From a virus (Duplodnaviria > Heunggongvirae > Uroviricota > Caudoviricetes): a stretch of 64,000 bases of DNA. Every line of letters begins with the position of its first letter. Position 1 is the stretch's first letter. Positions 9,127-64,000 of the stretch are shown here, piece by piece. A model generated the notes under the pieces. It saw only the letters and a program-made list of their open reading frames with translations. It was not told where the DNA came from and did not search any database. The stretch is taken from the IMG/VR virus record IMGVR_UViG_2861079508_000001. One strand, 5' to 3'. The translations under genes were made by a program, and so were the position numbers.

Positions 9127-9132
9127 AACGAC

Positions 9133-11592
9133 TTACCCCTGAACCTTTTTTACTTCCGCACCAAGAATCTGCGCAATCAAACCTTCGGCTTTTTGTTCTA
9201 GGTTGATGATGTCGGTTGCGACCTCTTCTAAACTACGCAGCGGTTTATGACGGTAGAAATACTTATTGAAGCTGATTTCATAGCCAATTTTTACCGTATC
9301 TAGGTTTATCCATGCTTCATCGACATGAGGCTTCACTTCATCTAGGAAGTACTGGTAAATGCTTTGCTTTAATGGAACAGATTCTGTATCTCGCAGGTCT
9401 GAATTGGTCTCGTAAGTGATATACTCGCCTTTTTTACCGCCTTCTGCTGAAGGAACGGGGTAATAACCAAAATCTGGCAAGTCAGCGACTTCACACTCAT
9501 AGCGCTCCAGCAGGTCGTTTAATTTATCACCCGTTAATTTAACTACCTTTTTAACCACTTTCTTGGCGGTTTCGTCATACCAGCTCACCGCGTGAAGAAT
9601 GGCATTTTTCTCAGGTGCTGAAAGCTTAATAGCATGGGCTTTTAGCGATTTATCAACTTGGGTTTTAAAGCTATTGAAGTCATCAAATTCAATGCTACCG
9701 ATGTCAGCCATCAGCGTTTGTGCAGTTTCAAGCAATGCTTTTAGCGCCAGCCAGTGTTTCACATCAAGCAGTTTGGCCTTAGCCTTAGCATTGAGACTGA
9801 TGTCGTTATCTTCACACCAAGAAAGAATGTCTTTCTCGATGGATTTTAAGAAGCTCTTTTTCTGATCTGACCCGTAGCCAGTTTTTTCGTAAACACGTTC
9901 GCCGTGCTCTGCGTACACGTACTCCATCACTTCACTAAGTTGCTTATCAAAACGCAGTGGGGCTATGGCATCTTGAGTAAACTTGGCTTTGCGGCGATCT
10001 GGGCGCTCGATAGTGACTTTGTAGTAGCCAAAATCGTCATTGCTGAATACCTTACTGGCGATGCCAACAGGATCATTGTTTGCATCCAGTGCTCTTTCAA
10101 CATCCTTACACGCGAGGTAAGTATCGGTAATTTCCGTGATGTGCTCAGGCGCAAATTCGCAGTTTTTGTTACCTAAGTTCTTGCGCAACTTACGGTAGAG
10201 CAAGCTGGCATCAATTAATTGCACCTTACCTTTACGCGCCTCAGGTTTATTGTTGTTCAACACCCAAATGTAAGTGGTAATGCCAGTGTTATAGAACAGG
10301 TTATTAGGTAACTGAACGATGGCATCTAGCATGTCGTTTTCAATGATGAAGCGACGAATATTACTTTCGCCACCGCCCGCATCACCGGTAAAGAGCGATG
10401 AGCCGTTATGAACAGAGGCAATCCGGCTGCCTAATGGACTTACGCTCGGATCTTTCATCTTGTTGACCATCTCCATTAAGAAAAGCAGCTGGCCATCACT
10501 CGAACGTGGCGTGGCATCCACCACTTCGAGATTTCCCCAATAGTCTTTCAGGCTAACCTTAAAACGCGGGTCAATCACATCGCTGCCGTCTTTAATGTAC
10601 TTCTGTTCAGACGCCCAACTCTTACCGTATGGCGGGTTAGACAACATAAAGTCAAAGCGAGAAGCCGCAAACTCGTCGGTAGACAAGGTTGAGCCTACCT
10701 TGATGTTCTCAGGGTTGTTACCTTTGATCATCATGTCCGATTTACAAATCGCGTAGGTCTCGTCATTGATCTCTTTGCCGTAAAGGTAAATATCTCGGCT
10801 GTCGTTCGGGTATTTCTCTTCAATGAAGTTTTGAGATTCAGTGAGCATACCACCGCTACCACACGCAGGGTCGTAAACGGTCATGGTCAATGGTAGCTGC
10901 TCTTTCACTGGGTCAAAAACCAAGTGTGTCATCAGCTCAATCACTTCCCTAGGTGTAAAGTGCTCACCGGCTTCTTCGTTATTCTCCTCGTTGAACTTAC
11001 GGATCAACTCTTCGAACACGTACCCCATACCCAGGTTAGTAAGGGCTGGCATCTTGTTGCCATCTGGGTCTTCGATCGTTTCATGAGTTAAGTTGATGTA
11101 AGGGGAAACAAACTTTTCGACGACATCAAGAAGGACTTGCTTTGAGGCCATGTGACGAATTTGCGACTTGAGGTTAAAGCATTCAATGATTTCTTTAACA
11201 TTATCGCTAAAGCCAAGCAGGTACTCTTCAAAGTTGGCGAGTAATATCTGTTGGTTATTCGTTGCGGTGTTGAACAGGGATTTCAGGGTCCATTTAGATG
11301 TATTGTAAAAAACATAACCACTAGCCGCCTTCAATGGTTCATCATCAAGCTCCGTGGCTTGCATCTCTTCTTTTTGGAACTTGACCTCTTCAAGCACGGC
11401 TTCTTTGGTGGGTTCAAGTAACGTATCTAAACGTCGTAATACCACCATAGGTAAAATCACATCGCGGTACTTACCGCGAACGTACACATCACGTAAACAG
11501 TCGTCGGCAATGTTCCATATAAATGAGATGAGCTTGTTATGTACACTATGATCCATTTTCTTTTCCTGTTCAGTGTTGGTTGCACCCCACAA
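9133..11592 (-). CDS. hsdM: type I R-M N6-adenine DNA methyltransferase (HsdM) with long C-terminal extension; start probably MDHSV (about 11556)
   Basis: AdoMet motif DPACGSGGML and catalytic NPPYG; N-terminal IWNIADDCLR HsdM-N signature; about 800 aa versus roughly 520 typical. Confidence 0.85.
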   Translation of the reverse strand: MWGATNTEQEKKMDHSVHNKLISFIWNIADDCLRDVYVRGKYRDVILPMVVLRRLDTLLEPTKEAVLEEVKFQKEEMQATELDDEPLKAASGYVFYNTSKWTLKSLFNTATNNQQILLANFEEYLLGFSDNVKEIIECFNLKSQIRHMASKQVLLDVVEKFVSPYINLTHETIEDPDGNKMPALTNLGMGYVFEELIRKFNEENNEEAGEHFTPREVIELMTHLVFDPVKEQLPLTMTVYDPACGSGGMLTESQNFIEEKYPNDSRDIYLYGKEINDETYAICKSDMMIKGNNPENIKVGSTLSTDEFAASRFDFMLSNPPYGKSWASEQKYIKDGSDVIDPRFKVSLKDYWGNLEVVDATPRSSDGQLLFLMEMVNKMKDPSVSPLGSRIASVHNGSSLFTGDAGGGESNIRRFIIENDMLDAIVQLPNNLFYNTGITTYIWVLNNNKPEARKGKVQLIDASLLYRKLRKNLGNKNCEFAPEHITEITDTYLACKDVERALDANNDPVGIASKVFSNDDFGYYKVTIERPDRRKAKFTQDAIAPLRFDKQLSEVMEYVYAEHGERVYEKTGYGSDQKKSFLKSIEKDILSWCEDNDISLNAKAKAKLLDVKHWLALKALLETAQTLMADIGSIEFDDFNSFKTQVDKSLKAHAIKLSAPEKNAILHAVSWYDETAKKVVKKVVKLTGDKLNDLLERYECEVADLPDFGYYPVPSAEGGKKGEYITYETNSDLRDTESVPLKQSIYQYFLDEVKPHVDEAWINLDTVKIGYEISFNKYFYRHKPLRSLEEVATDIINLEQKAEGLIAQILGAEVKKVQG

Positions 11593-12250: not shown

Positions 12251-13324
12251 TTAATCTTCTAATTCATCTGTCGGTGATGTCTTCTCGCGCCTGTCATCTA
12301 TTGCCTGTAACGCAGCAATGATTTCAGCTAATGGCTTCTCCCGGTACATCTCGACGATCTGTGATTTGGTGTATTTCTTCTCGCCAATTTCCACACGCCC
12401 GCTGGCGCTCTTGGGCAGGTATCCTTCCTCCAGCATGTATTCAACCAGAGACTCGACGACGTCCAGCCCGCGAGTCGGGTCGAAGTAGAATTTCCATGAG
12501 CATTTGCCAAACGGAGGCGCGACTTTGTTTTTAATGCACTCGGCGCCAACGTCCTGTCCGATCTTCTCTTTGCCATCCTTCATGACGGATGCACCCAGAC
12601 GGATGCGCACCGACGCGTAGAACTTCGGAGAGTCGCCACCCGGAGACGTAGTCGGATCGCCAAACATCACACCAATTTTGGTACGCACCTGGTTCAAGAA
12701 GATGATGCACGCGTTGTACTTACGCGCCCAAAGCGCCAGAGTAGGGAAGTTCGCACTTGTCGCGCGCGCCAGCGCCGTGTTGTCGTTCATGTTCAGCTGA
12801 TCTTTGTCTTTCGCAGTGCCTTCTGCCATCTTGTCGAACTTCTCAGCCTTCGAGTTCGGAACCATCGACGCCAGAGAGTCGGCTACGATGCAGATAGGGG
12901 CTGTTTCCGGAATAAGCTCTTCGTCGCGCACCAGCTTGAGGATTGTGCCGATCAGCTCTACGGAGTCTTCGAAGGTATCCGGCTGTTTGTAGACCCACTG
13001 ACCGTCATCCTCATCTGCGTTCAGGCCATTGGCTACAGCCAGGCCAACGTCAAAACTGTTTTCATGATCGAGGAATACCGCCAGACCATCTTGTTTTTGA
13101 GCGGAGATCATCGCTGCTGTTGCAAGGAACGTTTTCCCTGCACTTGGAGGACCGAATACTTCGACGATACGACCACATGGGAAGCCGCCATCGTAACGAC
13201 CAGAAATAGCTTTGTTTAACGGTGGAAAGCCTGTATCAATCCAATAAGTTACTTTCTGAATTTCGTCGTTGCTACCGATTTTCTTTTTCAGAGCAAGTGC
13301 CAGTGCGGATTTTCCTTTTGCCAT
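12251..13324 (-). CDS. RecA-family recombinase (UvsX/Sak4-like)
   Basis: 357 aa; Walker A GPPSAGKT; RecA-like core. Confidence 0.7.
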   Translation of the reverse strand: MAKGKSALALALKKKIGSNDEIQKVTYWIDTGFPPLNKAISGRYDGGFPCGRIVEVFGPPSAGKTFLATAAMISAQKQDGLAVFLDHENSFDVGLAVANGLNADEDDGQWVYKQPDTFEDSVELIGTILKLVRDEELIPETAPICIVADSLASMVPNSKAEKFDKMAEGTAKDKDQLNMNDNTALARATSANFPTLALWARKYNACIIFLNQVRTKIGVMFGDPTTSPGGDSPKFYASVRIRLGASVMKDGKEKIGQDVGAECIKNKVAPPFGKCSWKFYFDPTRGLDVVESLVEYMLEEGYLPKSASGRVEIGEKKYTKSQIVEMYREKPLAEIIAALQAIDDRREKTSPTDELED

Positions 13325-28801: not shown

Positions 28802-28888
28802 TGGCGGAGAGTAATGGAATCGAACCATCATCGCTTGCGCAATGGGACGGTTTTCAAGACCGCTTGAGCACCATGCTCCCTACTCTCC
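28802..28888 (-). tRNA. tRNA-Ser (anticodon UGA), class II long variable arm
   Basis: folded by hand from the reverse complement: acceptor GGAGAGT/ACTCTCC, anticodon loop CTTGAAA, T-loop TTCGATT, 3' CCA. Confidence 0.8.
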
Positions 28889-28987
28889 AGCTATTGTGAT
28901 GGTCGGTGCTGAACTCCGACACAGGGTTGTAGCAAGCCCCGCAAAGCGCGCACTACTGTAGTTGCGGCACATCAGCCTGTGCATTCA

Positions 28988-29070
28988 TCACAACGGTAAG
29001 ATCACTACCTTTCGACCAGTCATTGTGCACATGAACGACGATTAACCGTAATGATCTTATCGTTGTGTTG
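28988..29070. repeat. long hairpin H1 (arms CACAACGGTAAGATCA / TGATCTTATCGTTGTG)
   Basis: inverted repeat read directly between tRNA-Ser and tRNA-Thr. Confidence 0.5.
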
Positions 29071-29115
29071 TGAAGCCAGATGCTTATCTTCTGGTTGCTT
29101 CAAAGAGCTGCACTT

Positions 29116-29208
29116 CCTCACAACGGTAAGAGCACTGGTCTGACTCTATCGATTTACGGCCTTGTGGGTCAGTATCGCCGATTCGCCCAATGCTCTTACC
29201 TGTTGTGT
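29116..29208. repeat. long hairpin H2 (arms CACAACGGTAAGAGCA / TGCTCTTACCTGTTGTG), paralogue of H1
   Basis: inverted repeat read directly; ends at tRNA-Thr. Confidence 0.5.
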
Positions 29209-29284
29209 TGGTGCCGGTTAACGGACTTGAACCGCTGGCCATTCGCTTACAAAGCGACTGCTCTACCAACTGAGCTAAACCGGC
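29209..29284 (-). tRNA. tRNA-Thr (anticodon UGU)
   Basis: hand fold: acceptor GCCGGTT/AACCGGC, D-arm GCTCAGTTGGTAGAGC, anticodon loop TTTGTAA, T-loop TTCAAGT, CCA. Confidence 0.8.
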
Positions 29285-29288
29285 AATT

Positions 29289-29375
29289 TGGTGGGGAGTG
29301 ATGGAGTCGAACCACCCGAGTCGCCATGACAGTAGATTTACAGTCTACACCGCTACCTCTACGGACTAACTCCCC
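29289..29375 (-). tRNA. tRNA-Tyr (anticodon GUA), class II
   Basis: hand fold: anticodon arm CAGACTGTAAATCTG-like (GACTGTAAATC), long variable arm, T-loop TTCGACT, CCA. Confidence 0.85.
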
Positions 29376-29380
29376 TAAAT

Positions 29381-29455
29381 TGGCGATGGTGGGTGGATTC
29401 GAACCACCGACCAGTTGGTTAACAGCCAACTGCTCTACCGCTGAGCTACACCATC
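29381..29455 (-). tRNA. tRNA-Asn (anticodon GUU)
   Basis: hand fold: perfect 7-bp acceptor GATGGTG/CACCATC, anticodon loop CTGTTAA, T-loop TTCGAAT, CCA. Confidence 0.85.
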
Positions 29456-49551: not shown

Positions 49552-52500
49552 TTACAGAAGGCCAATTCTTACTCGTAGGACGTTGTTATCGTCATAAACG
49601 TCAATCCGCTGACCATTTATGACCAGTCGCCCATTACCCCCGCTATTACCGTTGATCTCAAGCGTTCCATTTTTGCCGAACCGCCATCCAGATCTACCGC
49701 TAACAAAATTGGTAGATTGCAGATCGCCTACTTTTGCATTGGTGATTGTGCCATCCTTGATATACGCACCATTCATATAGGCGATACTGTTTTCGATAAC
49801 AAATGGCGTGGTGATCTTCCCGTTAACAGAGTTGACCAAACCAAACCTGTCAGCCTGCACCAAAAACTGAGAAAGGCCAGTGGTGTCGATACCAAGCGCA
49901 ATACCAGCAACATACTTCTGCCCTCCGCTCGTTGAAGTTTCCATTTTCAACGTCCACGCGGTTGACACTTTTTTGTTGGTATCAGCAATAGCTGTTGCCT
50001 GCTGTTGAATTGTCGCGGTATTTCCATCCACCTCTGCTTTCAGAGTATCGATTCGCCCACTCAGAGCATTATCTGCCTGCGTTCTCGCTGTCGTTTCAGT
50101 TGTTACCGCCGCGGAAATGTTGGCTGCCGTTTGAGACTCTAAGTTTGTGATTTGAGTCGCCAATGCAGCATCTTGCTCTGTACGCGTTTTCGTTTCGGTT
50201 GCTACAGCCGCTTTAATATCCTCTTTGTATTGAGAGGTCAGCTTGGTGATCTGAGACGACAACGCCGAGTCAGCATCAGTTCGAGCCTGCGTTTCAACTG
50301 CAACGGCCGCACTAATATCTTTCGCTGTCTGTGCTTTTAAACTTGAAACCTCTTTTGTTAAAGCGGTATCACCATCAGCACGAGCCGTTGTTTCTCTGGC
50401 AAGAGATGCCTCGAGATCATTAGCTTTTGCTGTAAGAGACGAAATCTGAGTGGACAATGCACTATCGGCATCAGTCCTTGCCTTTGTCTCTACAGCAACC
50501 GCTGCGGCAATATCAGTTCCGGTTTGTGCTCGCAGGCTGTTAATTTCTCGTGAGAGCGCCTGGTCAGCACTTGCTCTGGCCTCCTGCTCCTGAGTGATGG
50601 CAGCGGATATATCACCGTCAACCTTTGACTGAAGCTGGTTTATTTGTTTGGCTAACGCAGAGTCCCCGCTTGCTCGGGCCTCCTGCTCACTACGTATTGC
50701 AGCAGAAATATCATCATCAACCTTTGCCTGAAGTTGGGTGATCTGGCTTGCCAGAGCCGAATCTTCCGTTGCTCGGGCTTCTTGCTCTTCCTTAATAGCT
50801 GCGACGATATCGTTGCTTACTTTCGACTCAAGCTGAGTGATCTGTGTCGTCAGAGCTTCATCGGCAGATGTGCGAGCCTCCTGCTCTGTACTAATCGCCG
50901 CGCTGATATCTCCTTCAAACTTAGATTGCAGCTGAGTGACACGCTTTGCCAACGCTTCATCGCCATCGGCACGAGCGGTGGACTCTTCCAGAATACTGGC
51001 CTTAATGTCTTCGCCAATTTCTACGCGAATTTCCTCAACCTTCGTGGCCATTGCAGACATATCATCAGCAAAGGTTTTCTGTGTTGTTGCGATCTTCGCG
51101 TTATTGACCATCTGCTTGTGCTGGTCTTCATCTTGACGAAGAGCTAGGTCAATATTTGTTTTGGCTAACGCCTCAATGTTCGTAGTCAGTTCTGCACTGG
51201 CACGATCGACCTCTGCAACCGTCTTTTTCATTTCTTCAACGGCAGCGGAGCTTTCCTCTACCGTTGACTGCAACACTTCCAGTTGTTTAGCGTTTGCAGC
51301 ATCGCCTTCAACACGAGCCTCGCTTTCCTTAGCAATAAGAGCCGCCGCTTCATCTCTTGCAGCCTTTATTGCCTCGACTGTATTAGCGAGAGCTTTATCG
51401 TGTTCAGATACGGTGTTTTCGATTTCAACAATTGCAGCATCAGTAGCATCAATTTTTTCAAACGCTTCATTGACCTTGTCGATCGTTGCCGAAACCTCAC
51501 CTTTAAGCTCGGTTTGTGCGTTCTCCAAAGCATCGCTACGCTCGTTGAATTTTATTTCAAAACCCGCGAGGTTATCGCTGAACTGCTTATCTAATTCAGC
51601 TATATCTTCCTTAACGTCGTTTACCGACCCCTCCAAAGATTCGACGCTCTGGTTGATATGCTCATTTAACTCGTCAACTGCTTCTTGAGAGGCTTTGCTG
51701 TTGATGTCCTCAAGCAGAGCCTGACCAAGCTCGGAAGATGTAATTTTGCCAGCCAGGAACGACAGTACATCGCGAGTTGTCGCCTCTGTACCCAAGTTTG
51801 AGTTCGGAGGGCTTAACATACCTCGCTTGTTCGATGCTCGAACCCAGTAATACCACGTTTCGCTATCCCCAAGACCAGCATGTGTAAAGGTGGTGCTTGC
51901 AGACTCTGCGATCAGTTTCGCCGTATCCAGATTGTTGGTCTGGGATGCGTAAACATTAATGTGATCAAGGTCTACCGAATCTGGATTAACCCAATTCAGT
52001 ATCACATTACGATAGTCTCCAACGGCCGTTAATGACGTTGGTGCATCCGGCGGTGTCATTGTGCCCAGCACCTGATAAACGGTACTGATAATTTCTGTTT
52101 TTTTACCGTTGAATGAAACCGCATACAGTTGGAAGTCGTAGCGTCCATTCTCCGCGACATTAACGATTTCGTATTGTTCTTCGGTTACACGCGCCGATTG
52201 CCAGTTCGATACATTGTTTTCATCAGAACGTCGCCAACTGATCCAATACTCTGGAGATTTCCCTTCCCATGTTGCAGTCAGTTTTACTGACAGGTTGCCC
52301 GGGCTTGAGAGGTAAGTCCCTTCAGTGATTTGCAAATTAGACGGCTTGGAGTAAGTCGGGTCCAATACCGTCGTATTCTGCGGGATAAGCGTTGCACCAT
52401 TGTCGATCGCCTCATATTTAGACGGATTGTTTTCAACAGCGGTGATGTCAAAGCTACCCGACGTTTCCCCCTGAGCGATGTTAACGATGCGAACGCGCAT

Positions 52501-54270
52501 AGGTTCGAGATCTGGTTCTGTAATTGTCCAGACACCGTTCAAAACAGGCGTTTCCGCTGACGACAGAGCTTTTGAAAACGTAACCTTTGTTATGTTTTCG
52601 CCAGTTTCAAGAACATCGCGCTCAACGATTTTGCCTTCCTGATTCAATATCCGAATAAAGCTGCCGCTTTTAGCTAACGACACAGGCGCATCGAGAGTGA
52701 TGCTGTTTTTGGTAAACTCCACAATTCGACCGGAGTTACGTTTACCTGCACGATATTTGTTCTGAATCAGAACGGTTTCACCGGGCATCAGAAATGAGGC
52801 GTCTAAGCCGGCAGTAAATGTAATTACATCCGACTCCATTCTGGCGGTATACAAAAGCCACAAACCAACTCGGTGAGCCTGGCCTCGGCTTGTACATCCA
52901 AATGCTACGACTTCTGTTTTACGCTCACCATAACGGCGCATTGCGTCCTGATCTTCAACGTACTCGATGTTTTGCTTATAACCGTCCTCCTTGTTGTTGT
53001 AGGTTACGAGCGCAACGGATGGGCGATCTTTACGCGCAGAACCTTTATAGGTAAACAGTCCATCTTTGACGTTGGAGTTGGTAAACATCATTACTGGATC
53101 TGATGGGCTATCCTGCATGATGTTAACCATGCCACCAGCCCAAAACACCATGCCGCGGAATGCACCGGCAATATCCTGAATTAATCGGTATGCGTCTTGT
53201 CGACTGGTGATCTGCGTATTGATTGCAAAGCGTTTCTCTTTACCCCCAAAGCCATCATCGACCTCTTCGTCACAATATCGACCAATCTGGTAGAGCTGGC
53301 CGAGGTCAATCATGGATTCCGACACAAATTGCCCAAGACCATACCGAGTATTGGTAAGCAAATCGTAGAGAATCCACGCAGGGTTTGAAGAAGACAACAG
53401 CTTAAAAGTACCGTCCCATACGCCGACATAAGTATTGGTGTATTCGTTGTCTCGGATTTTGATACCGCGCACCAAATACGAACGGGAAGGCATTGTGCTA
53501 CCAAACTGCTCTGAATTGACCTTCAAGCCAACAAGAGCAGAGTTAGGGTAGTTCATTGGCGTGTCGACAATCTCACCTATGGAATCAACCCATGTGTCGT
53601 TGTAGAGGTACTGGCTACTGTTATCATCTGTAAGACGAATCACCCTAACCTTGTATGCACGACCAGGCTTAGGTAGTTTCAGCTCATAGCTACGGTAATA
53701 CACGCCGGTTTTCTTTGCCGTTAGCGTGATATCAACGCTTTTCTCACCTTCTGCCACTACATCAGAAAATGTTGCGTCTCCGTTGGCGATCTGGAATTTG
53801 TACTTCACCGTAGTGCCATTTGTATCGCCAGAGCTTTTATCAACGCTACGTAAAGAGGGGAATTTCATGATGACACGAACGCGATCAGCTTCATCGTTAT
53901 CGATTGAAACCGTAACGTCGTGTGTTTTTTTAAGCTGAATATTTACGGACTTAGGCGTTTCGACAAAATCAAAACCAGCCATTGGCGTCTGGTCTTGTGA
54001 GCCGTCACGAAAATCCCATGTAATACCGCTGAAGTTGGAAGAGCCATCTTCATTCAAGATCGGTAAATCGTCGATGAAGATCGACTTTGCGCCATTTACC
54101 AGGCCACCGATAACCCCCTCGCCAAGAAGGTCGAGGATGGCTGCCATAGCACGAGAATTGACAGTATCATCAGCTTCAACCGGGGTACGGCTGGAGCTTT
54201 TACTTTTCTTGCCACCAGCACCGGCAATAAGAAGCGGTAATTTTTTCTTCTTGAACTGTTCCATGTCCAA
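49552..54270 (-). CDS. lambda J-like tail tip / host-specificity protein with long coiled-coil repeat insertion
   Basis: 1572 aa; ILDLLGEGVIGGLVNGAKSIFIDD, YPNSALVGLKVNSEQFGS and VVAFGCTSRGQAHRVGLWLL match lambda J; ~330 aa of ~28-aa helical repeats. Confidence 0.85.
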   Translation of the reverse strand: MDMEQFKKKKLPLLIAGAGGKKSKSSSRTPVEADDTVNSRAMAAILDLLGEGVIGGLVNGAKSIFIDDLPILNEDGSSNFSGITWDFRDGSQDQTPMAGFDFVETPKSVNIQLKKTHDVTVSIDNDEADRVRVIMKFPSLRSVDKSSGDTNGTTVKYKFQIANGDATFSDVVAEGEKSVDITLTAKKTGVYYRSYELKLPKPGRAYKVRVIRLTDDNSSQYLYNDTWVDSIGEIVDTPMNYPNSALVGLKVNSEQFGSTMPSRSYLVRGIKIRDNEYTNTYVGVWDGTFKLLSSSNPAWILYDLLTNTRYGLGQFVSESMIDLGQLYQIGRYCDEEVDDGFGGKEKRFAINTQITSRQDAYRLIQDIAGAFRGMVFWAGGMVNIMQDSPSDPVMMFTNSNVKDGLFTYKGSARKDRPSVALVTYNNKEDGYKQNIEYVEDQDAMRRYGERKTEVVAFGCTSRGQAHRVGLWLLYTARMESDVITFTAGLDASFLMPGETVLIQNKYRAGKRNSGRIVEFTKNSITLDAPVSLAKSGSFIRILNQEGKIVERDVLETGENITKVTFSKALSSAETPVLNGVWTITEPDLEPMRVRIVNIAQGETSGSFDITAVENNPSKYEAIDNGATLIPQNTTVLDPTYSKPSNLQITEGTYLSSPGNLSVKLTATWEGKSPEYWISWRRSDENNVSNWQSARVTEEQYEIVNVAENGRYDFQLYAVSFNGKKTEIISTVYQVLGTMTPPDAPTSLTAVGDYRNVILNWVNPDSVDLDHINVYASQTNNLDTAKLIAESASTTFTHAGLGDSETWYYWVRASNKRGMLSPPNSNLGTEATTRDVLSFLAGKITSSELGQALLEDINSKASQEAVDELNEHINQSVESLEGSVNDVKEDIAELDKQFSDNLAGFEIKFNERSDALENAQTELKGEVSATIDKVNEAFEKIDATDAAIVEIENTVSEHDKALANTVEAIKAARDEAAALIAKESEARVEGDAANAKQLEVLQSTVEESSAAVEEMKKTVAEVDRASAELTTNIEALAKTNIDLALRQDEDQHKQMVNNAKIATTQKTFADDMSAMATKVEEIRVEIGEDIKASILEESTARADGDEALAKRVTQLQSKFEGDISAAISTEQEARTSADEALTTQITQLESKVSNDIVAAIKEEQEARATEDSALASQITQLQAKVDDDISAAIRSEQEARASGDSALAKQINQLQSKVDGDISAAITQEQEARASADQALSREINSLRAQTGTDIAAAVAVETKARTDADSALSTQISSLTAKANDLEASLARETTARADGDTALTKEVSSLKAQTAKDISAAVAVETQARTDADSALSSQITKLTSQYKEDIKAAVATETKTRTEQDAALATQITNLESQTAANISAAVTTETTARTQADNALSGRIDTLKAEVDGNTATIQQQATAIADTNKKVSTAWTLKMETSTSGGQKYVAGIALGIDTTGLSQFLVQADRFGLVNSVNGKITTPFVIENSIAYMNGAYIKDGTITNAKVGDLQSTNFVSGRSGWRFGKNGTLEINGNSGGNGRLVINGQRIDVYDDNNVLRVRIGLL

Positions 54271-55684: not shown

Positions 55685-56381
55685 AATGGATCACACCGTC
55701 GGCAAAATAATTCCGACGCGCATTACAGGCGTCATAACGTTTTGTGCAGTAATCCGCACCAGACATAGACGTCTGCTGGTTATTTTTGTCGAAATATGGA
55801 CCGGTATAGCCGCATTCTGGCCCTCGGTATTTCCACGGGCAGGTGTTTTTAATGATCTGACGATACGGCAGTTGCACCCCCATCAAATCGAACACACTGG
55901 ACAATTCAAACTCGACAACCTGATGAGTTTCGAGAGTTTTCTGTTCGATAAACCACATTTCATCCGGGAAATGTTGGTTTGGATCTGCTGTTGGGTTGCC
56001 GTCTTTAAAATTAACGGCATCGAGGAAGCGAGCCAGCGTCATCTTGCGAATAATGCGGCAGCCAACAAGATCGTCGTTCGCCTGAACTTCCGCAGAGACG
56101 GTTCCGGCAAAGTTCGATACCTGAATTTTTGGACGTGGCAACGTTCCCTGGCCCGTTTTGTCAAAGCCTGATGCTTTTATTGGCCACGGCTCGTATGTCA
56201 CTCCTTGCCAGACGACCGGTTGCATCAGTTCGTTTGTTCCGGCGTGGAAGAATAGCTTCCCCCCTGAAGTTGTGTTCGACATATCCAGTACGAACAACTC
56301 AATGAGTGCAGAGGGAGATAAGCTCTGAATATCAGCTTTAATTCCCATTGTTTCATCCTTGAAATAAGTAGGCGCTAACAT
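55650..56381 (-). CDS. lambda L-like minor tail protein (real start probably ATG at 56348)
   Basis: KNTCPWKYRGPECGY matches the lambda L motif; AAGGA ribosome-binding site before 56348. Confidence 0.8.
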   Translation of the reverse strand: MLAPTYFKDETMGIKADIQSLSPSALIELFVLDMSNTTSGGKLFFHAGTNELMQPVVWQGVTYEPWPIKASGFDKTGQGTLPRPKIQVSNFAGTVSAEVQANDDLVGCRIIRKMTLARFLDAVNFKDGNPTADPNQHFPDEMWFIEQKTLETHQVVEFELSSVFDLMGVQLPYRQIIKNTCPWKYRGPECGYTGPYFDKNNQQTSMSGADYCTKRYDACNARRNYFADGVIHFGGFIGATRYG

Positions 56382-56403
56382 CCTGTCAGCGCCACAATGA
56401 TAG

Positions 56404-56424
56404 TAAATCAGTACTTACTTATCC
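56404..56424. promoter_or_regulatory. motif B upstream of L-like gene, followed by hairpin 56371-56393
   Basis: TAAATCAGTACTTACTTATCC then GGCGCT...AGCGCC. Confidence 0.4.
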
Positions 56425-56430
56425 AGATGC

Positions 56431-56766
56431 TTAAGCCTCAAATACTTGTCTGAATGTAGCAGTTAAGACACAGTACCCCTGATATCGCTTGACCGTATGA
56501 CTGTCACATACAACTACAATCTGCTTGCCTCTTGGATTAACCCAATAGAACGATTCAACGCCTGATCGCTCAGTCAGGAAGTCATCGATTGCATTAATTT
56601 CGTTGTATGATCTGGTAAAGGTTAACGACCATTCTTCTTTAATACGATTAAGACCTTGAGCCTGTCGCTGCTCGTAGTCATCACCAAAATTAAGTACCGT
56701 TACATTCGGTTTTACGCTTTTTTCAGATTCGTAATCTGGATACCAATTAAACGTTTGTCTTTCCAT
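56431..56766 (-). CDS. lambda M-like minor tail protein
   Basis: 111 aa; LNFGDDYEQRQAQGLN resembles lambda M; position. Confidence 0.75.
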   Translation of the reverse strand: MERQTFNWYPDYESEKSVKPNVTVLNFGDDYEQRQAQGLNRIKEEWSLTFTRSYNEINAIDDFLTERSGVESFYWVNPRGKQIVVVCDSHTVKRYQGYCVLTATFRQVFEA

Positions 56767-56808
56767 CTCACATCCTTGTGAGACTGCCCCGGTCGGGGCA
56801 GTCGATAG

Positions 56809-59800
56809 TTAGTTACGTTGAGTGTTTGGGTTGAGAGATCCGCCAGGGCGTTTCTCTTGAGCGATAGTCTCAAGCGCGATTGCTTTCATCCGTTGAGCGG
56901 CATTGTTCCATATGCTTTCTGTATCGCCGGATTCAGTTGTGCTACCGTCACTATGGACGTTGATCTCAATTGATACCGGAGAAAGAACATTTCCTCCTCC
57001 ACTCATACCATCGGTACTGAGCGTTACAGGGATTGTTCGACCATCAGGCAATGGAACATACGCCTCATTCATATCGCCTTCCCCAAACAACGCCAATTGA
57101 GGTGAGTTGGCGATACCGCCTTTCTGGTATGCCCGGAGCGGGATCACGCCGTCTTTTCCGAATATGCCACCATTTGCAAACTTCGGAATTGCAGGAATAC
57201 CATTCGTGCCATCGGCAGCAGAACTGGTCAGATTGTTGAACCCGGAAGTTGAGCCAGAAGAACCGGACATCAATCCATCGAATCCACCACCAGCCCATAC
57301 TGAAACCAAACCAGATGCAACTGTCGCGCCGAAATTCAACCACTTATTACCAGAGCCGGAAGCATTAGCTCCAAGCATTGCAAACGCGGCAGACAGAGCG
57401 CCGGTAACAGAGCTGAGGTTCTGCATCGAGAAGATGGAGTCCTTCACTGCTTTTGTCTCAGCATCTTTGGCTTCGGTGCTATCAAATAGCCCCGATACCC
57501 AGCTACCAATCGCATTTGTTGCTGTGCCAATTGCGCTGGTGGTCTGCTGTGTTGTTTGCCCCAATCCAGTTACCGAACTGGACGTCTCCTTCGTGGCTTC
57601 TCCTACCGACTTGTCGCCATTAACAGTGTTGCCCATTCGTACACCTTGATTGGCAACGGCAGAAGCAACTCCAGTGAGCAAATTGCCACTCTGTGAACTA
57701 CCAGCTGCGGTGGTTCCCATCCCCAACATGTTCATTAGAGGCAGCGTGATTTGCGACTTCACGACCATATTGGTGATATCTTTCAAAATGGACTGAGATA
57801 GGCTGGAGAAGCTCATCTTCCCGTTAATAACGAAATCAGTCAGGACATCAGTTAAGCCACTAAACAAATCAGTCCAGGTGCTTTCGATCTGCTCTGCCAA
57901 GTTTTCGTATTCCAGTGCCAACTTCTGCGTCGCAGTCCCCGTCTCTTTAATAAGCGCGGTATTGCCAGCAGCAATCAGTTGATTGATTTTCTTTGTATAA
58001 AGCGCCACAACTTTAGGATCAGACGCCTTATCACGAAGTTCTATCAACGCTTTGAGATTGCGGTTGTAGGTGTCTTCGAAATCGGCAACTTTCTCTTCGC
58101 GAGACGGCGTATAGCCAGCACTAATAATGGAATCCGCCTCCGGTGCCCAAGTGGAGATCATCTGCTCAACATTGCGGCGATTAAACATCTCACGATATTC
58201 AGGTGTCGCATTTTTGAGGTCTTCAAGACGTTTTTTCGCCTTGTCGATCATCTCTTGAGTGATGAACTCGTTAGGAACCGCATTAGCCAAATCTGTCAGC
58301 GATTTCGTTGTATCGCGAAGAGACTGATCAAACGATACCGTAGCCTTAGAGCTTTCACCCATTTGCCCCATAAGCTGATCGGCTTTGTCCAGAGCCTTCT
58401 GGTATCCGGCTGCCAGTTTCTGTTGCGCTGCCTGTTCCTTCTTGGCCGCACGCTGCGAGGCGTTAGCTGATCGTTGGGCTGCTTTCTCGGCAGCTGCTGC
58501 ATCCTGTTCACGAGCTTTAGTTAGTGCAGCAATGGCTGCGGCACGCTCTTCATCGCTCATTTTCTCCAGAGAGCTGGCGCTGGATGCTTTCTGCAAATTA
58601 AGCTGCGTCTTGAGTTGTTTAGGCCCAATAATCGGCTTACCTTCGAAGTCCATCATCGGAGTGCCGTCAGGCAAAGTACGCTGATAAGTCGCAGAATTCA
58701 TCTGGTTTCGCATATATTGCGCCAACGCCTTCTGAGCAGCTTTATCAGTTGTACCTAACCCAAGAACAGTCCCCTGGTTTGACATTACGCCCTTACCAGT
58801 TTTGGCCGCGTTATCTCTCTCGAACTCTGCCTGAGTAAGTTCCTGAGCAACGGCTTCCAAATGCTCCTGATAACCACGAATACTGCCTTGCAGTTTCTGG
58901 ATTTGCTCGGTATTGCCATCCTTTTTGGCTTTTTCAAGCTGATCATTAAGAGTCGCGATTTGCTTCTCGGTCGCATTCTTACGAGAAGAAAGTGAATCAA
59001 CCAGTTTTTGCGCAGGCTCCAGATAGCTTTTGTTTACCGTTTCACGTAACGGTGCCAATAGCTTGTTCTTTTCGTCATCTGAAAGTGAACCGTCATCATT
59101 GATTTTCTGGATCTTATCCAGAGCCTCCTGCCGGGCTTTCACGAATGTTGCCGCGAAAATCTGGTTTTCCGCTCGAATTTTCTCAATCTGAGATTCGGCA
59201 GCCTCTTTAGCCAAACGCTTTGCTACAGCGCCGTCACCAAGAGCTATCGTGCCGGTTATCTTTTGATACTCTTCCTGATTTTTTTTCAGGCGTGCTTCGA
59301 TGTCAGCCTTCGACTCTTTGTGAGTAATAACACCGGCAGAGTTAGATACGTAATTAACACCCTCACCAGTTTTTAATGCTCGTTGATCAGCAAGAATCTG
59401 CTTTTCGAGCTTTTCTGCGCGGTCGGCCATTTGTGCACGTTTGGCCGCCGTCATCGCCTCTGGTATTTTCCTAATCTCGTCAACGACCTTTGAAGTTTCG
59501 CTGCGGAGCATGGTCATGTACGTGATTAGGCCAGCAACAGCTACAGTGGCAACTGTAAATGCTGCCCCTATAGGGTTTGCTGCAATGAACGCCGTTAATC
59601 CAGCAAAAGCGCCTTTAAGCCCCGTAATCGCCCCACGGATGGCGAAAATAAGAGAGGGGATCGGAGCCAGCCCCATACGTGCCGCACGATTGAATCGGGT
59701 TACTGCTGTAGCGCCGAGGTTAAATGGAGTCTGTATGGCGGTCGCCATCGTGGCAAAGGTGCTAACCATCTGGCTGCCTGCGCCAACTACCCCCATGATC

Positions 59801-60547
59801 CCTGCTCGCATCAGTTTGAACGCAACCATCGCGGCCACGACCTTACCGAGATTAATTACCAGCTCTTGGTTCTTTGCTAACCATTGAGCAAGCTGACGCA
59901 ACCCATCAATTGCCGTCGTTAACCCCGAGCCTAAAGAATTGGCAAACGAAATCCCTTCGGCGCTATTCATGATTGAAGCCAGTTCTTTCATCCCCTTCGA
60001 TAGAGAATCCAGATATCCGGCCTGACCAACCCGATCAGCAAATAACGTGAATGACGTCTGAAGTTGCGCCAGCGCACCTGTGTAGGTTTGCATCATGTCT
60101 TTCGCTGCGTTCTCATTCTCCGCACGCAGACCAACAAACATCAGAGACAACGCCTGTTTTGCCTCAACCGTACCGCTGGCAACGGCTTTAGTCAGTTCCC
60201 CCATAGTGATGCCTGCGGCGTCTGCCATTGCCTGCATCGCGTTAGGAACGGCTTCACCTAATTGCTGACGTAGCTCTTCCATTGACACAACGCCCTTACC
60301 GGACATCTGCTGAACGGCCACAGCCGCACGTTTCAACAGCTCACTATCACCACCAAAACGAGCAACGGAGTCCACCAGCGCCTTCAGAGAACCATCGGTT
60401 GGATCTAAGCCAGCAGAACGAAACTTCACGAAGGAATCTGTTAACGCCTGCATCGCGAACGGCGCATTTTGCGCCATGTCTACGATGTACTTCATATCAT
60501 CAGCGGCAGCCTGGCCAGGGTTGGACTTCTCCTTATTCAACCCTCGA
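56809..60547 (-). pseudogene. tail tape-measure protein, C-terminal ~1245 codons, separated from its 5' part by IS629
   Basis: long helical Ala/Gln-rich ORF upstream of M; reading frame stays open up to the IS boundary at 60547. Confidence 0.8.
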
Positions 60548-60601
60548 TGAACCGCCCCGGGAATCCTGGAGACTAAACTCCCTGAGAAAGAGGTAAACAG
60601 G

Positions 60602-60928
60602 ATGACTAAAAATACTCGTTTTTCCCCCGAAGTCCGTCAGAGGGCGATTCGTATGGTTCTGGAAAGTCAGGGCGAATATGACTCACAGTGGGCGGCAATT
60701 TGTTCCATTGCCCCAAAGATTGGCTGTACACCGGAGACTCTGCGTGTCTGGGTACGCCAGCATGAGCGGGATACCGGAGGCGGTGATGGCGGGCTCACCA
60801 CCGCTGAACGTCAGCGTCTGAAAGAGCTGGAACGTGAAAATCGTGAACTGCGCCGCAGTAACGATATCCTTCGCCAGGCTTCCGCTTATTTTGCGAAGGC
60901 GGAGTTCGACCGCCTCTGGAAAAAATGA
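60602..60928 (+). CDS. IS629 OrfA
   Basis: 108 aa [23 protein letters not shown]...; A6 run at 60920-60925 at orfA/orfB overlap. Confidence 0.9.
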
Positions 60929-61815
60929 TGCCACTGCTGGATAAGCTGCGTGAGCAGTACGGGGTCGGACCGCTATGCAGCGAACTGCATATTGCCCCGT
61001 CAACGTATTACCACTGTCAGCAACAGCGACATCATCCGGATAAACGCAGTGCCCGTGCGCAGCGCGATGACTGGCTGAAGAAAGAGATACAGCGCGTATA
61101 CGATGAAAATCATCAGGTGTACGGTGTGCGTAAAGTCTGGCGTCAGTTGTTACGGGAAGGTATCAGAGTGGCCAGATGCACTGTGGCACGTCTCATGGCG
61201 GTTATGGGACTTGCCGGTGTTCTCCGGGGTAAAAAGGTCCGTACGACCATCAGCCGGAAAGCCGTTGCCGCAGGCGACCGCGTAAACCGTCAGTTCGTGG
61301 CAGAACGACCTGACCAGCTGTGGGTGGCTGATTTTACTTACGTCAGCACATGGCGGGGCTTCGTCTATGTGGCGTTCATCATTGATGTGTTTGCCGGATA
61401 CATCGTGGGGTGGCGGGTCTCATCGTCTATGGAAACGACATTCGTGCTGGATGCTCTGGAGCAGGCGTTATGGGCCCGTCAACCGTCCGGCACAGTCCAT
61501 CACAGTGATAAAGGTTCTCAGTATGTATCGCTGGCCTACACACAGCGGCTTAAGGAAGCCGGATTACTGGCATCAACAGGAAGTACTGGTGACTCGTATG
61601 ACAACGCGATGGCGGAGAGCATCAATGGCCTTTACAAAGCGGAGGTAATACACCGTAAGAGCTGGAAAAACCGGACAGAAGTGGAGCTGGCCACACTCAC
61701 GTGGGTGGACTGGTATAACAATCGACGATTGCTGGAAAGGCTGGGCCATATCCCACCGGCAGAAGCAGAAAAAGCTTATTATGCTTCCATCGGAAACGAT
61801 GATCTGGCAGCCTGA
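60925..61815 (+). CDS. IS629 OrfB (DDE transposase), -1 frame relative to OrfA
   Basis: 296 aa with rve core (WVADFTYV...HHSDKGSQY...YDNAMAES). Confidence 0.9.
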
Positions 61816-61857
61816 GTTCACAGATAAAACACTCTCCAGGAAACCCGGGGCGGTTCA

Positions 61858-62714
61858 CGAAGCATCACCCGCATACGTTCCATTTCGGCCGCAGCTTCAA
61901 CAATAGGCTTCTGCCACCCAAACATGATGTCAGTAACCGTTCTGGCTGCATCTCCGATCTCGCCAAGCAGGAAAATGTTGCCACGAAGGCCAGAGAACAT
62001 ACCTCCTTCGTTACTTTTACCGCTATGGCCAGAAGCGCCGCTACGCCGCCCGCTACCACCATCGCCACTTCCAGATGTACGAACGCGTACCGGCTTGCTA
62101 ATCAGTTGCTGACGTCCGATAACTTCGTCCATCTGCTCACGAACCTTTTTCAGTCCCTCGGCAGCCTGACTCGTTGTGACACCCCAATTACTGAGTCGCT
62201 TCGTCGTGGTATTAAGGCGCGTATTCATGCCACTCACGGACGCAGAGGCTTCTTTGACCTCCGTACCAAAGCGGCTTGCGCTTTTGCTTGCATAGGTCGC
62301 CCAATCAGAGAAATCATTTAGCTCTGATTGCACTTTACGTAATGACGCGGTGAGTTTATCTACTGAAGAAGTTGTCGTATCGACGCGCTCAATCAGGGCT
62401 TTAAGACCAGAATTGAGGCTGGTGATGTTGCCACGCATTTTACGCGTAGCATCTGAAGCAAGCTCAAAACCGGCAGCTACATCCTGTAGTTTATCTGCTG
62501 TAGAATCGAGCTTGCTTTCCAGAACGCCAATGATACGGGCGACCGAACCCAAAGAGCGTTCAAAGGTTTGGATTTTTTGAGCAGGCTTTGTTACCTGCTC
62601 ACCAAATCGAGTAAGCAGTTTCCCCGCACGATCGATTGACGCTGTAAACTGTTTGTCTTCCAGCGACAGGATAAACTCTACGTTTTGTGACATTCCCTTG
62701 TCATCCTCTGCCAA
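61858..62714 (-). pseudogene. tail tape-measure protein, N-terminal ~285 codons (track ORF continues into the IS to 61818)
   Basis: follows G/T chaperone genes; frame arithmetic shows continuity with 56809..60547 after removing IS plus one CGA. Confidence 0.8.
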
Positions 62715-62970
62715 ATATTTGCATCAGTTGCTCTTTGGCGTCAGGGTCTGCCTTATCCTGGCTTGGATCGTAGACTTTATCTGTTACGACTGGTCTTCCA
62801 ATCCTGAGTTGCAAACCCTCCATGAACGCCTTCACAGCCTCGCCATCCGCCTGGGACGCACGAGCGACTTGTAAGTTGCGGACATCCTCTTCCGCACGCA
62901 GACGGTCTATATTGCGACTGAGCATCCAGAACATCGTGAGAGGAACGTTCAGTAGCTCTAATGGCGACAC
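62701..62970 (-). CDS. tail assembly chaperone T-frame segment (GT-like, probably via -1 frameshift from G)
   Basis: in the -1 frame relative to G and overlapping the tape-measure start; lambda G/GT synteny. Confidence 0.45.
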   Translation of the reverse strand: MSPLELLNVPLTMFWMLSRNIDRLRAEEDVRNLQVARASQADGEAVKAFMEGLQLRIGRPVVTDKVYDPSQDKADPDAKEQLMQIFGRG

Positions 62971-63050
62971 GGCGTAGTGAGCAACTACACGACTGAAATA
63001 GAATCCGAGATCTATTGAGACGGTCCTTGTCCCGGATTCATCGCGGGAAA

Positions 63051-63368
63051 TTACTTTGCCCCTTCGCCAGCCGCTTTTTCGTTTTCTTCATCAATCACTT
63101 CCATAGCGAAGGTGAAGATCTGCTGGAGTTGCGGAACAGTCAGTTTTTCAAGAACTTCATCAGGCACTGAAGGGATAACCTTACGAACCAGATCTGCATA
63201 AGCTGTCACTTGCTCAACAGGAGACATGTTCATGAGATCTTTGCCTTCCATCTGCTTGATGGAAACGAACAAACCTACCGTCATTTCAACGATGGGATAT
63301 TCCTGACCGCCAAATTTGATGCTTTTCTTCGGAGGCAGAATGGAATCGAGATCGAGTAATTTGGTCAT
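63051..63368 (-). CDS. tail assembly chaperone (lambda G-like)
   Basis: 105 aa acidic protein between major tail gene and tape-measure gene. Confidence 0.6.
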   Translation of the reverse strand: MTKLLDLDSILPPKKSIKFGGQEYPIVEMTVGLFVSIKQMEGKDLMNMSPVEQVTAYADLVRKVIPSVPDEVLEKLTVPQLQQIFTFAMEVIDEENEKAAGEGAK

Positions 63369-63423
63369 TGGTTTAAATCCTTTTAAAAGAGAGGCTCATC
63401 CTGAGCCTCTGCTTAGTTACTGA

Positions 63424-64000
63424 TTAATCTGCGGAGTTAATCGTTACTGACTTAGTAGCCTTCTTAGAACCGCTATTGCTGGTGAAGGAGATGTTTGCAG
63501 TACCCTGCGCCACACCGCGCACAAGACCCGTTTGATCTACCGTGGCCTTTTCCTGGTCTTCGGATTCCCAAACACCGGTTTTGTCTGCGGCATCAGCTGG
63601 AGTGATTTCGGCTGTCAGTTGCACAGTTTCTCCAGCTTTTACGGTTGGAGATTCCGGTTTGATCGACACGGTTTTTACCGGTTTAGGGCCGCTCATTCTT
63701 CCCAGAACGCCTTCGTCATCAGGGTACGCACTGAACTGAACAGAGAACACACGAACATCATCAGACTGGTAAGTCATGGTGAAGTTACCTGCGGTCGCAG
63801 CTTTCGGGATGGTCAGAACGTAGTCGGTAGTGTCCTGCGGAGTCAGAACCAGCTCTTTGGCTACGTCGATCAGGTTGACACCCTGTGCGGAAGTGATGGT
63901 CACAGCGTTGTCGTCTTCGTTCAGAGTAGACCCCGGCATCAGATCGACCATATTTTTCAACACAGACTCGGCCAGCGGCGCAGTAATGGTAATGTTACGA
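63424..64000 (-). CDS. major tail protein (lambda V-like) with C-terminal Ig-like domain; 5' end beyond window
   Basis: frame stays open to base 64000; C-terminal VQLTAEITPADAADKTGVWESEDQEKATVDQTGLVRGVAQGTANISF is Ig-like. Confidence 0.7.
   Translation of the reverse strand, partial: RNITITAPLAESVLKNMVDLMPGSTLNEDDNAVTITSAQGVNLIDVAKELVLTPQDTTDYVLTIPKAATAGNFTMTYQSDDVRVFSVQFSAYPDDEGVLGRMSGPKPVKTVSIKPESPTVKAGETVQLTAEITPADAADKTGVWESEDQEKATVDQTGLVRGVAQGTANISFTSNSGSKKATKSVTINSAD

Follow-up and report, generated by a model that had tools for sequence, protein, structure and literature searches.

An apparently recent IS629-type insertion that splits the tape measure gene in an SSU5-like phage-plasmid of E. 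coli

The closest described relatives of the element analysed here are the SSU5-like phage-plasmids, which include SSU5, E. coli Cyrano/pLF82, and pSJC33-2. Their backbone and gene order are common to the window (the whole stretch of 64,000 nucleotides that was analysed); the shared genes comprise RepB, type I restriction–modification, genes for replication and for nucleotide metabolism, and a tail block of the lambda type with chaperone-position genes, the tape measure protein (TMP) gene, and M, L, K, I, and J. In lambda, the TMP gpH sets the tail length and is needed for tail assembly, and in-frame shortening of the TMP gives shorter tails. Cyrano, which has a TMP of 1525 aa, is inducible by ciprofloxacin and forms siphovirus particles with tails of ~259 nm, as measured by TEM and in keeping with the length of its TMP (PMC9928086). 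For this relative, both maintenance as a circular extrachromosomal element and inducible production of virions have been shown.

IS629, an IS3-family element with the isoforms IS1203 and IS3411, generates target-site duplications (TSDs) of 3–4 bp, its targets are not sequence-specific, and within O157 genomes prophages harbour 62% of its copies (PMC3271280). The window carries a complete element of this type within the TMP gene (Table 1), a prophage gene, as is the case for most copies in O157 genomes. The best explanation, to which we assign a rough probability of 0.9, is a recent simple insertion of an active IS629 isoform into the TMP gene of an SSU5-like phage-plasmid, by which the virion route was probably lost.

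Table 1. Coordinates of the insertion, the split TMP gene, and adjacent tail genes in the window
Feature	Position	Strand	Description
Minor tail protein, lambda M-like	56431..56766	-	Pfam Phage_min_tail PF05939, E=2.6e-35
3' TMP fragment	56809..60547	-	Native residues ~279-1523; no start codon of its own
TSD CGA, left copy	60545..60547	.	Single CGA in empty site
IS629-type insertion sequence, IS3 family, complete	60548..61857	+	1310 bp; boundaries and inverted repeats scripted
IS orfA	60602..60928	+	108 aa, HTH_Tnp_1 (Pfam PF01527), E=1.8e-12
ALIL frameshift-stimulating pseudoknot	60883..60999	+	Rfam RF01497; over the orfA/orfB overlap
IS orfB	60925..61815	+	296 aa, DDE/rve integrase core (Pfam rve), E=1.8e-27
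5' TMP fragment	61818..62693	-	279 native residues and 12 IS-encoded residues (EPPRVSWRVFYL), stop
TSD CGA, right copy	61858..61860	.	Single CGA in empty site
Small gene upstream of TMP	62701-62970	-	One of the pair phrog_1131/phrog_893, unknown function
Small gene upstream of TMP	63051-63368	-	Other of the pair phrog_1131/phrog_893, unknown function

SSU5-like backbone and tail gene neighbourhood

The window was collinear with pSJC33-2 and ~99.9% identical to it over the aligned blocks. pSJC33-2 carries head and tail genes besides those for RepB and ParB, and this collinearity ties the window to the SSU5/pHCM2-type backbone, in which a plasmid replication initiator is combined with a full siphovirus structural module; of repB, the window itself contains just the last 364 codons (C-terminal part), and ~50 kb of the replicon, including the partition, head, and packaging genes, falls outside it. 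These alignments identify the window as a segment of an SSU5-like phage-plasmid from E. coli, a siphovirus prophage kept as a RepB plasmid. The tail region showed 81% identity to Salmonella phage SSU5 and 97% identity to phage Cyrano.

The window differs from pSJC33-2 by its interrupted TMP gene, the absence of a RecA intein, and a different HsdS segment. Within the tail block, the sole difference besides the IS was an in-frame indel of 12 nt (four codons) in the J-like gene, and the IS is the only disruptive difference from pSJC33-2 in this block.

The TMP gene occupies the position expected in a siphovirus tail operon, between chaperone-position genes and minor tail genes. It is directly followed by the gpM-like gene and then by L, K (C40 peptidase), I, and J-like genes, and it is preceded by two small genes (together spanning 62701..63368, minus strand) and an Ig-domain tail gene. 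Gene order suggests that the two small genes are tail assembly chaperones. The restored TMP shares with lambda gpH-type proteins the domains Tape_meas_lam_C and TMP_3 and a location flanked by the chaperone-position genes on one side and the gpM-like gene on the other; it is much longer than gpH, and it is split here into two probably non-functional pieces. At 0.15 nm per residue, its 1523 aa correspond to a predicted tail of ~230 nm, in line with the length measured for Cyrano. Relative to the tail operon, the IS is in antisense orientation.

Identity and coding content of the IS629-type element

The initial annotation had described an intact IS629 of 1310 bp at 60548-61857 flanked by CGA repeats, and re-derivation of the coordinates by script agreed with it to the base. 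The termini read TGAACCGCCCCGGG...CCCGGGGCGGTTCA, and 22 of the first 25 positions of the terminal inverted repeats matched. The element thus has the length (~1.2-1.5 kb) and the inverted repeats ending in 5'-TG...CA-3' of IS3/IS629 elements, and it shares with known IS629 the 1310-bp size, the TG...CA termini, the imperfect inverted repeats of ~25 bp, the overlapping orfA and orfB, the A6 run, the ALIL pseudoknot, the DDE (rve) transposase, and the 3-bp TSD.

Isoforms are delimited in ISfinder by a nucleotide identity of ≥95%. Judged against copies annotated as IS629 in the Stx phages BP-4795 and Stx2_499, the element exceeded this value, with 97.4-97.8% identity over the full length. It was not identical to the O157 copies and showed ~95% identity over the first 200 nt to those labelled IS1203 by PGAP; it therefore appears to represent a further sub-type or isoform that stays inside the 4-5% spread described in the literature. 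Full-length copies with 100% identity were found in at least 25 records among complete E. coli genomes.

In addition to rve, orfB matched Pfam HTH_21 and rve_3. In the NCBIfam model NF033516 (transpos_IS3), orfA corresponded to positions 1-86 and orfB to positions 93-369 (315 bits). The two frames share ATGA after the A6 run, with orfB in the -1 frame relative to orfA, and together they span the 1214-nt slippage CDS annotated by PGAP in sibling copies, one of which is annotated "programmed frameshift". The pseudoknot matched RF01497 over model positions 1-117 of 117 with 120.2 bits (gathering score, 50). The arrangement of orfA (HTH) and orfB (DDE/rve) with predicted programmed -1 frameshifting is that of the IS3 family. 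With its inverted repeats, both reading frames, a full pseudoknot, and identical copies elsewhere, the IS looks functional, and the description of the element as intact was borne out.

Target site, split gene, and age of the insertion

The CGA repeat is a genuine target duplication and not a chance repeat because CGA occurs once at this site (...AACCCTCGAAGCATC...) in the uninterrupted sequence of the relative E. coli plasmid pSJC33-2 (NZ_CP080257.1). Its length of 3 bp is that expected for IS3/IS629, in which 4 bp occasionally occur. When the 56000-64000 segment was restored, 6685 of 6688 bases (6.7 kb) were identical to pSJC33-2. Deletion of 60548-61860, which corresponds to the IS and one CGA (1313 bp), gave 4593 nt, divisible by three and with a single terminal stop, and the restored protein junction read ...MERMRVML-RGL-NKEKSNPG.... 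The two fragments were thus in the same frame, as had been proposed, and no frameshift between them was seen. The DNA across a precisely excised site would read ...CCCTCGAAGCAT.... Any simple insertion leaves a continuous frame once it is excised, so that this continuity carries no information.

The restored TMP ORF encodes 1523 aa on the minus strand (coding sequence of 4572 nt), and the insertion point lies after nucleotide 833. Its product matched the TMP of the empty-site relative (WP_032328865.1 of pSJC33-2) at 1522 of 1523 residues, with D895N as the sole substitution, so that comparison with an uninterrupted homologue showed an intact gene differing by one residue. In phrog_1292 (1523 positions), the 5' fragment covered positions 1-284 (E=4e-156) and the 3' fragment positions 285-1523 (2402 bits). 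The exact abutment of both ORFs on this profile supports the claim that one tape measure gene was split. Two unrelated ORFs were rejected on these abutting coordinates, and a naturally bipartite TMP was rejected because hundreds of relatives carry the gene uninterrupted.

The reading frames assigned to the two fragments were confirmed, with a qualification on each start. Upstream, TTG at 62714 is merely the first possible start. The ATG at 62693 is preceded by an AAGGG Shine-Dalgarno-like motif, lies 7 nt past the TGA that ends the preceding gene, and is equivalent to the ATG from which the TMPs of relatives are annotated (1523 aa); it is the likely true start. Downstream, 60540 is no genuine start but a Leu codon inside the uninterrupted reading frame. 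The native coding part of the 5' fragment stops at 61858, leaving an N-terminal stub of 291 aa whose last 12 residues are encoded by the IS, and the 3' remainder comprises 1244 codons. This remainder retained Pfam TMP_3 (PF20155) at positions 24-190 of 192 and Tape_meas_lam_C (PF09718), both above their gathering scores; the insertion cuts through TMP_3, and Tape_meas_lam_C lies on the C-terminal fragment. The fitting annotation for the two ORFs together is a single tape measure pseudogene disrupted by an IS.

We attach almost no probability to the idea that the 3' fragment builds shorter working tails from an internal start or that the placement of the IS is an assembly error at a repeat. The short tails of lambda produced by in-frame TMP shortening are a precedent for the former, but here the conserved TMP_3 domain is split, 279 N-terminal residues are gone from the 3' fragment, no promoter-like site points toward it, and the GAGGG motif abuts the TTG at 60540 directly, which is poor spacing. 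IS copies are classic assembly trouble spots, yet an assembly artefact was rejected: pSJC33-2 has the target sequence only once, and misassembly would not yield an exact 3-bp duplication of it.

The same IS/TMP junction was absent from 5,426 complete E. coli genomes searched with a junction query, in which the IS was joined to TMP pieces in just two records, both at other positions, and PLSDB contained no insertion at the same TMP site. Exact-protein look-ups retrieved no match for the N-terminal chimera, in versions of 291 and 298 aa, or for the C-terminal TMP fragment (three start variants). The proposal of a recent insertion is supported because the TSD is perfect, the fragments are undecayed, the protein differs from that of the empty-site relative by one amino acid, and the allele is absent from the collections searched; recency is relative here, as it derives from lack of decay and database rarity and not from a dated phylogeny.

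Predicted consequences and insertions in sibling plasmids

IS3-family elements transpose by a copy-out-paste-in route via a circular intermediate. In the proposed course of events, staggered target cleavage would have produced the 3-bp CGA duplication. The insertion left the N-terminal stub and a 3' remainder without a start codon or promoter of its own. Siphovirus tails are assembled on the TMP as a scaffold, which also determines their length, and production of tailed, infectious virions was therefore very probably lost. The downstream tail genes, including the M-like gene next to the TMP gene, may suffer from polarity. No sigma-70-like promoter directed from the IS end toward the 3' fragment was found, and a scan for outward promoters and terminators around the IS ends gave nothing beyond the shuffled expectation; the 3' fragment might possibly be expressed through read-through and internal initiation. 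Plasmid replication should be unaffected, and the element would therefore be inherited vertically as a defective plasmid prophage. The earlier suggestion that it persists only as a plasmid was apt in pointing to plasmid life, but its wording needs to be changed since such elements are already plasmid prophages; it is the infectious route that would be lost.

Precise excision would restore the TMP gene, as the IS is intact and the TSD perfect. Such excision is normally rare and is promoted for IS629 by the IEE protein, for which IEE-mediated precise excision and reactivation of an IS-disrupted lacZ have been documented (PMC9330008; PMC9397093). On this basis, the IS could act as an on/off element for virion production, with restoration of the TMP in a subpopulation and a conditional defect. 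We consider this very unlikely, as restorability is common to every fresh simple insertion and is no evidence of a switch, and the window carries no iee-like gene (all of its genes match annotated pSJC33-2 genes, none labelled IEE or PrimPol).

Independent IS629-type insertions were present in sibling plasmids: in the TMP gene (B-1109 and NRZ96606 p2), in the small gene upstream of it (pSCU-306-2), in the Ig-domain tail gene (pRHBSTW-00176_2), in the J region (the 503440 family and pCUVET18-789.1), and in the head region (NZ_CP085184.1). Their varied sites, both orientations, and distribution over several virion genes resemble random hits and not a dedicated switch site. The same insertions, together with SSU5-group elements distinguished solely by the gain or loss of an IS (survey preprint), would fit selected domestication, in which IS knock-outs of virion genes are favoured as a first step to a pure plasmid and the tail module is the preferred target. 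The latter point was addressed with matched queries that had this IS at the centre of backbone segments of equal size, a design that detects one IS orientation only. Independent same-orientation events numbered five near the tail segment (380 full-length records), one for the head segment (267), and none for the packaging/partition segment (93), a difference that was not significant in a comparison of small, unequal numbers that is underpowered and biased by conservation and clonal records. No TMP-specific or tail hotspot was found in this three-segment comparison. A TMP knock-out has no obvious benefit for the host because it does not block induction or lysis, and the build-up of IS629 in prophages is general (PMC3271280). 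Selected domestication with a preferred tail target is accordingly given a very slight chance. In a broader and still speculative form, which we regard as unlikely, the insertion would be a snapshot of recurrent, possibly selected knock-out of virion genes by IS629-family elements, turning infectious phage-plasmids into vertically inherited plasmids, maybe reversibly in iee-positive E. coli hosts.

The recent simple insertion with probable loss of the virion route is real but of an ordinary kind. In the IS-disrupted prophages of STEC, E. coli O157 among them, an IS3-family element likewise knocks out a structural gene while the prophage is retained. Those defective prophages are integrated, whereas the one described here is an extrachromosomal plasmid, and loss of virions therefore leaves a fully autonomous replicon. 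The insertion can be used as a clean marker for strain typing. It is one more case of IS hits in virion genes of SSU5-like plasmids and could feed a census of their decay into plasmids. The element itself is probably a defective SSU5-like phage-plasmid, which affects its predicted spread through infection or transduction.

Insertion site and empty site

Every number of the initial annotation concerning the IS629-type element (the element ends, its length, and the flanking CGA direct repeats) was reproduced when the coordinates were recomputed. The element starts with TGAACCGCCCCGGG and ends with CCCGGGGCGGTTCA, and the two terminal inverted repeats share 22 of their first 25 bases. Window coordinates put the minus-strand ORF that ends inside the element (61818-62714) and the minus-strand ORF 56809-60540 in separate frames, since 1313 is not divisible by 3. 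Removing the element together with one CGA in silico left 4593 nt whose only stop is the terminal one and which read ...RVML-RGL-NKEKS... across the junction; thus, the re-derived coordinates gave one continuous ORF without a frameshift, as had been annotated. By chance alone, 3-bp repeats would flank an element in 1 of 64 cases, and an empty site was therefore sought. The near-identical SSU5-like phage-plasmid pSJC33-2 (NZ_CP080257.1; E. coli from chicken, 113,446 bp) was uninterrupted, with a single CGA at the exact insertion point, and the restored 56000-64000 segment was identical to it at 6685 of 6688 positions. Therefore, the CGA repeat is a true target-site duplication.

Features of the insertion locus and of the divergent restriction-modification (R-M) gene
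Feature	Coordinates	Length	Description
IS629-type element	60548-61857	1310 bp	From sequence reading and recomputed coordinates
CGA, left	60545-60547		Directly adjoining the element
CGA, right	61858-61860		Directly adjoining the element
orfA	60602-60928		HTH_Tnp_1 domain
orfB	60925-61815		HTH_21 and rve (DDE) domains
ALIL frameshift pseudoknot	60883-60999		Full-length; Rfam 120 bits (gathering score, 50)
Chaperone-position ORFs	62701-62970 and 63051-63368		Minus strand; phrog_1131 and phrog_893, function unknown
hsdS-like ORF	7798-9126		Minus strand; divergent at 8592-9167, towards the N terminus of the type I R-M S subunit

The fragments of the tail length tape measure protein (TMP) matched positions 1-284 (N-terminal) and 285-1523 (C-terminal) of phrog_1292, a 1523-position PHROG profile named "tail length tape measure protein"; they are abutting halves of one protein, in agreement with the earlier assignment of both ORFs to a single TMP. 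In Pfam, the TMP_3 match (PF20155, positions 24-190 of 192) begins right where the C-terminal fragment does, and this conserved domain is thus cut by the element; Tape_meas_lam_C lies further along. The start codon was revised: instead of TTG 62714, ATG 62693 is likelier, as relatives are annotated from the equivalent ATG (1523 aa) and it is preceded by AAGGG and begins 7 nt past the stop of the upstream gene. From this start, the restored TMP has 1523 aa and differs from that of pSJC33-2 only by D895N, and the insertion point follows nucleotide 833 of the coding sequence. In its present state, the 5' piece specifies 279 native residues followed by EPPRVSWRVFYL, which is translated from the element end, and the 3' piece lacks a native start. 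The two small ORFs upstream of the TMP gene, in the position of the lambda G/T chaperones, had no Pfam match.

Identity of the element and differences from pSJC33-2

orfA and orfB, which overlap at ATGA after an A6 run, together tile the NCBIfam IS3 transposase model (1-86 and 93-369, respectively), and sibling copies are annotated by PGAP as one 1214-nt CDS with a programmed frameshift. Among complete E. coli genomes, full-length copies at 100% identity were found in at least 25 records, and copies at ≥99% identity in 135 records; the element is a current variant and is presumably active. Its identity to copies annotated as IS629 in Stx phages was 97.4-97.8%. Published work counts IS1203 and IS3411 among the isoforms of IS629, whose sub-types differ by 4-5% (PMC3271280), and therefore the name IS629 given initially is fair at the isoform level. 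IS629 generates 3-4 bp duplications without a sequence-specific target, and 62% of its copies in O157 genomes sit in prophages (PMC3271280).

The window begins inside repB, stops in the Ig-domain tail gene, and is collinear with pSJC33-2 throughout (84439 to the end, then 1 to 34985; ~99.9% over aligned blocks). Many ~110-kb non-mobilizable E. coli plasmids matched its tail region at up to 100% identity outside the element; among phages, the identity was 97% for Cyrano (Escherichia) and 81% for SSU5 (Salmonella). The differences from pSJC33-2 were the element, the 8592-9167 stretch, a RecA intein, small indels, and a few dozen SNPs. The 8592-9167 stretch, the only one without a megablast alignment, suggests that the target-recognition domain of the S subunit was swapped and that the R-M specificity differs. 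The start of the neighboring methylase gene was SNP-dense. The RecA-like gene of the window (12251-13324, minus strand; breakpoint near 13130) is intein-free and encodes 357 aa, whereas that of pSJC33-2 has 779 aa and carries a 422-codon (1266-nt) intein with LAGLIDADG_3 and Intein_splicing domains (pSJC33-2 region 97594-98864); this is a homing-intein presence/absence polymorphism between sibling plasmids. The tip attachment protein J-like gene (49552-54270, minus strand), with FNIII-A_GpJ, Phage-tail_3, and Phage_Tail_Tip domains, has an in-frame 12-nt deletion at 53451 relative to pSJC33-2, which leaves the frame intact. Compared with pSJC33-2, the IS629-type element is the only disruptive lesion in the tail block. 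A minus-strand tRNA cluster (28802-29455; Ser-TGA, Thr-TGT, Tyr-GTA, and Asn-GTT) was called as four genes by ARAGORN and three by Rfam at the gathering score.

Age, reversibility, and recurrence

The intact element with its target-site duplication is a simple insertion into an otherwise essentially wild-type gene, neither TMP fragment shows decay, and searches of PLSDB, of 5,426 complete E. coli genomes, and by exact-protein look-up did not recover the insertion allele. Together, these observations indicate a recent event, as initially proposed. Continuous frames upon precise excision necessarily result from any simple insertion with a target-site duplication, and carry no further information on function. 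Ordinarily, precise excision is a rare event. A reversible switch of the TMP gene by such excision is possible, with no specific support: the IEE protein strongly promotes precise, transposase-dependent IS629 excision (PMC9330008) and an IS-disrupted lacZ was reactivated through IEE (PMC9397093), but no iee-like gene was found within the 64-kb window, and restoration of the frame is common to all such insertions.

Independent IS629-type insertions were observed in sibling plasmids: at other sites of the TMP gene in the B-1109 plasmid (duplication TTG) and NRZ96606 p2, in the small gene upstream of it in pSCU-306-2 (opposite orientation), in the Ig-domain tail gene in pRHBSTW-00176_2 (duplication TAA), and in the J region in the 503440 family and pCUVET18-789.1. 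Records of SSU5-like E. coli plasmids with IS629/IS1203-type or other insertions include NZ_CP117972.1, CP056801.1, NZ_CP085184.1, and NZ_CP124394.1. For matched controls, the same element was placed mid-way in equal-sized backbone segments, which were then searched. Five independent events among 380 records (tail), one new IS1203-type match among 267 (head), and no joined element among 93 full-length records (packaging/partition) are suggestive of a hotspot at most, as small counts with one detectable orientation, biased by conservation and clonality, and we claim none. The head search also returned an unrelated ~1.25 kb insertion in the portal gene position of one SSU5-like plasmid. The virion genes of this family seem to be hit repeatedly by insertions. 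A survey preprint described SSU5-group elements differing only by IS gain or loss, and AMR-carrying insertions that stay out of the structural block.

Consequences for the phage-plasmid

IS3-family elements transpose by copy-out-paste-in, by which the element would have arrived in the TMP gene. In siphoviruses, the TMP is needed for tail assembly and determines how long the tail becomes. An uninterrupted version of this tail module is functional in the close relative Cyrano, which has a 1525-aa TMP and upon ciprofloxacin induction yields siphovirus particles with ~259-nm tails (PMC9928086). A TMP severed at residue 279, inside its conserved TMP_3 domain, should not allow tails to form. The element is antisense to the tail operon, and a scan around its ends found no promoter-like site facing the 3' fragment. 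Plasmid replication would continue despite the split gene, and induction would probably still lyse the host without making infectious particles; the knock-out would therefore be of no obvious benefit to the host.

The initial finding is real and correctly interpreted, but ordinary: the IS, the gene it entered, and the plasmid-phage family are all known, and a relative with the empty site is publicly available. The annotation should be corrected to a single TMP pseudogene with its start at 62693 and to an isoform of IS629. The phage-plasmid should be flagged as probably defective for virion formation. The TMP knock-out would take away its horizontal route.
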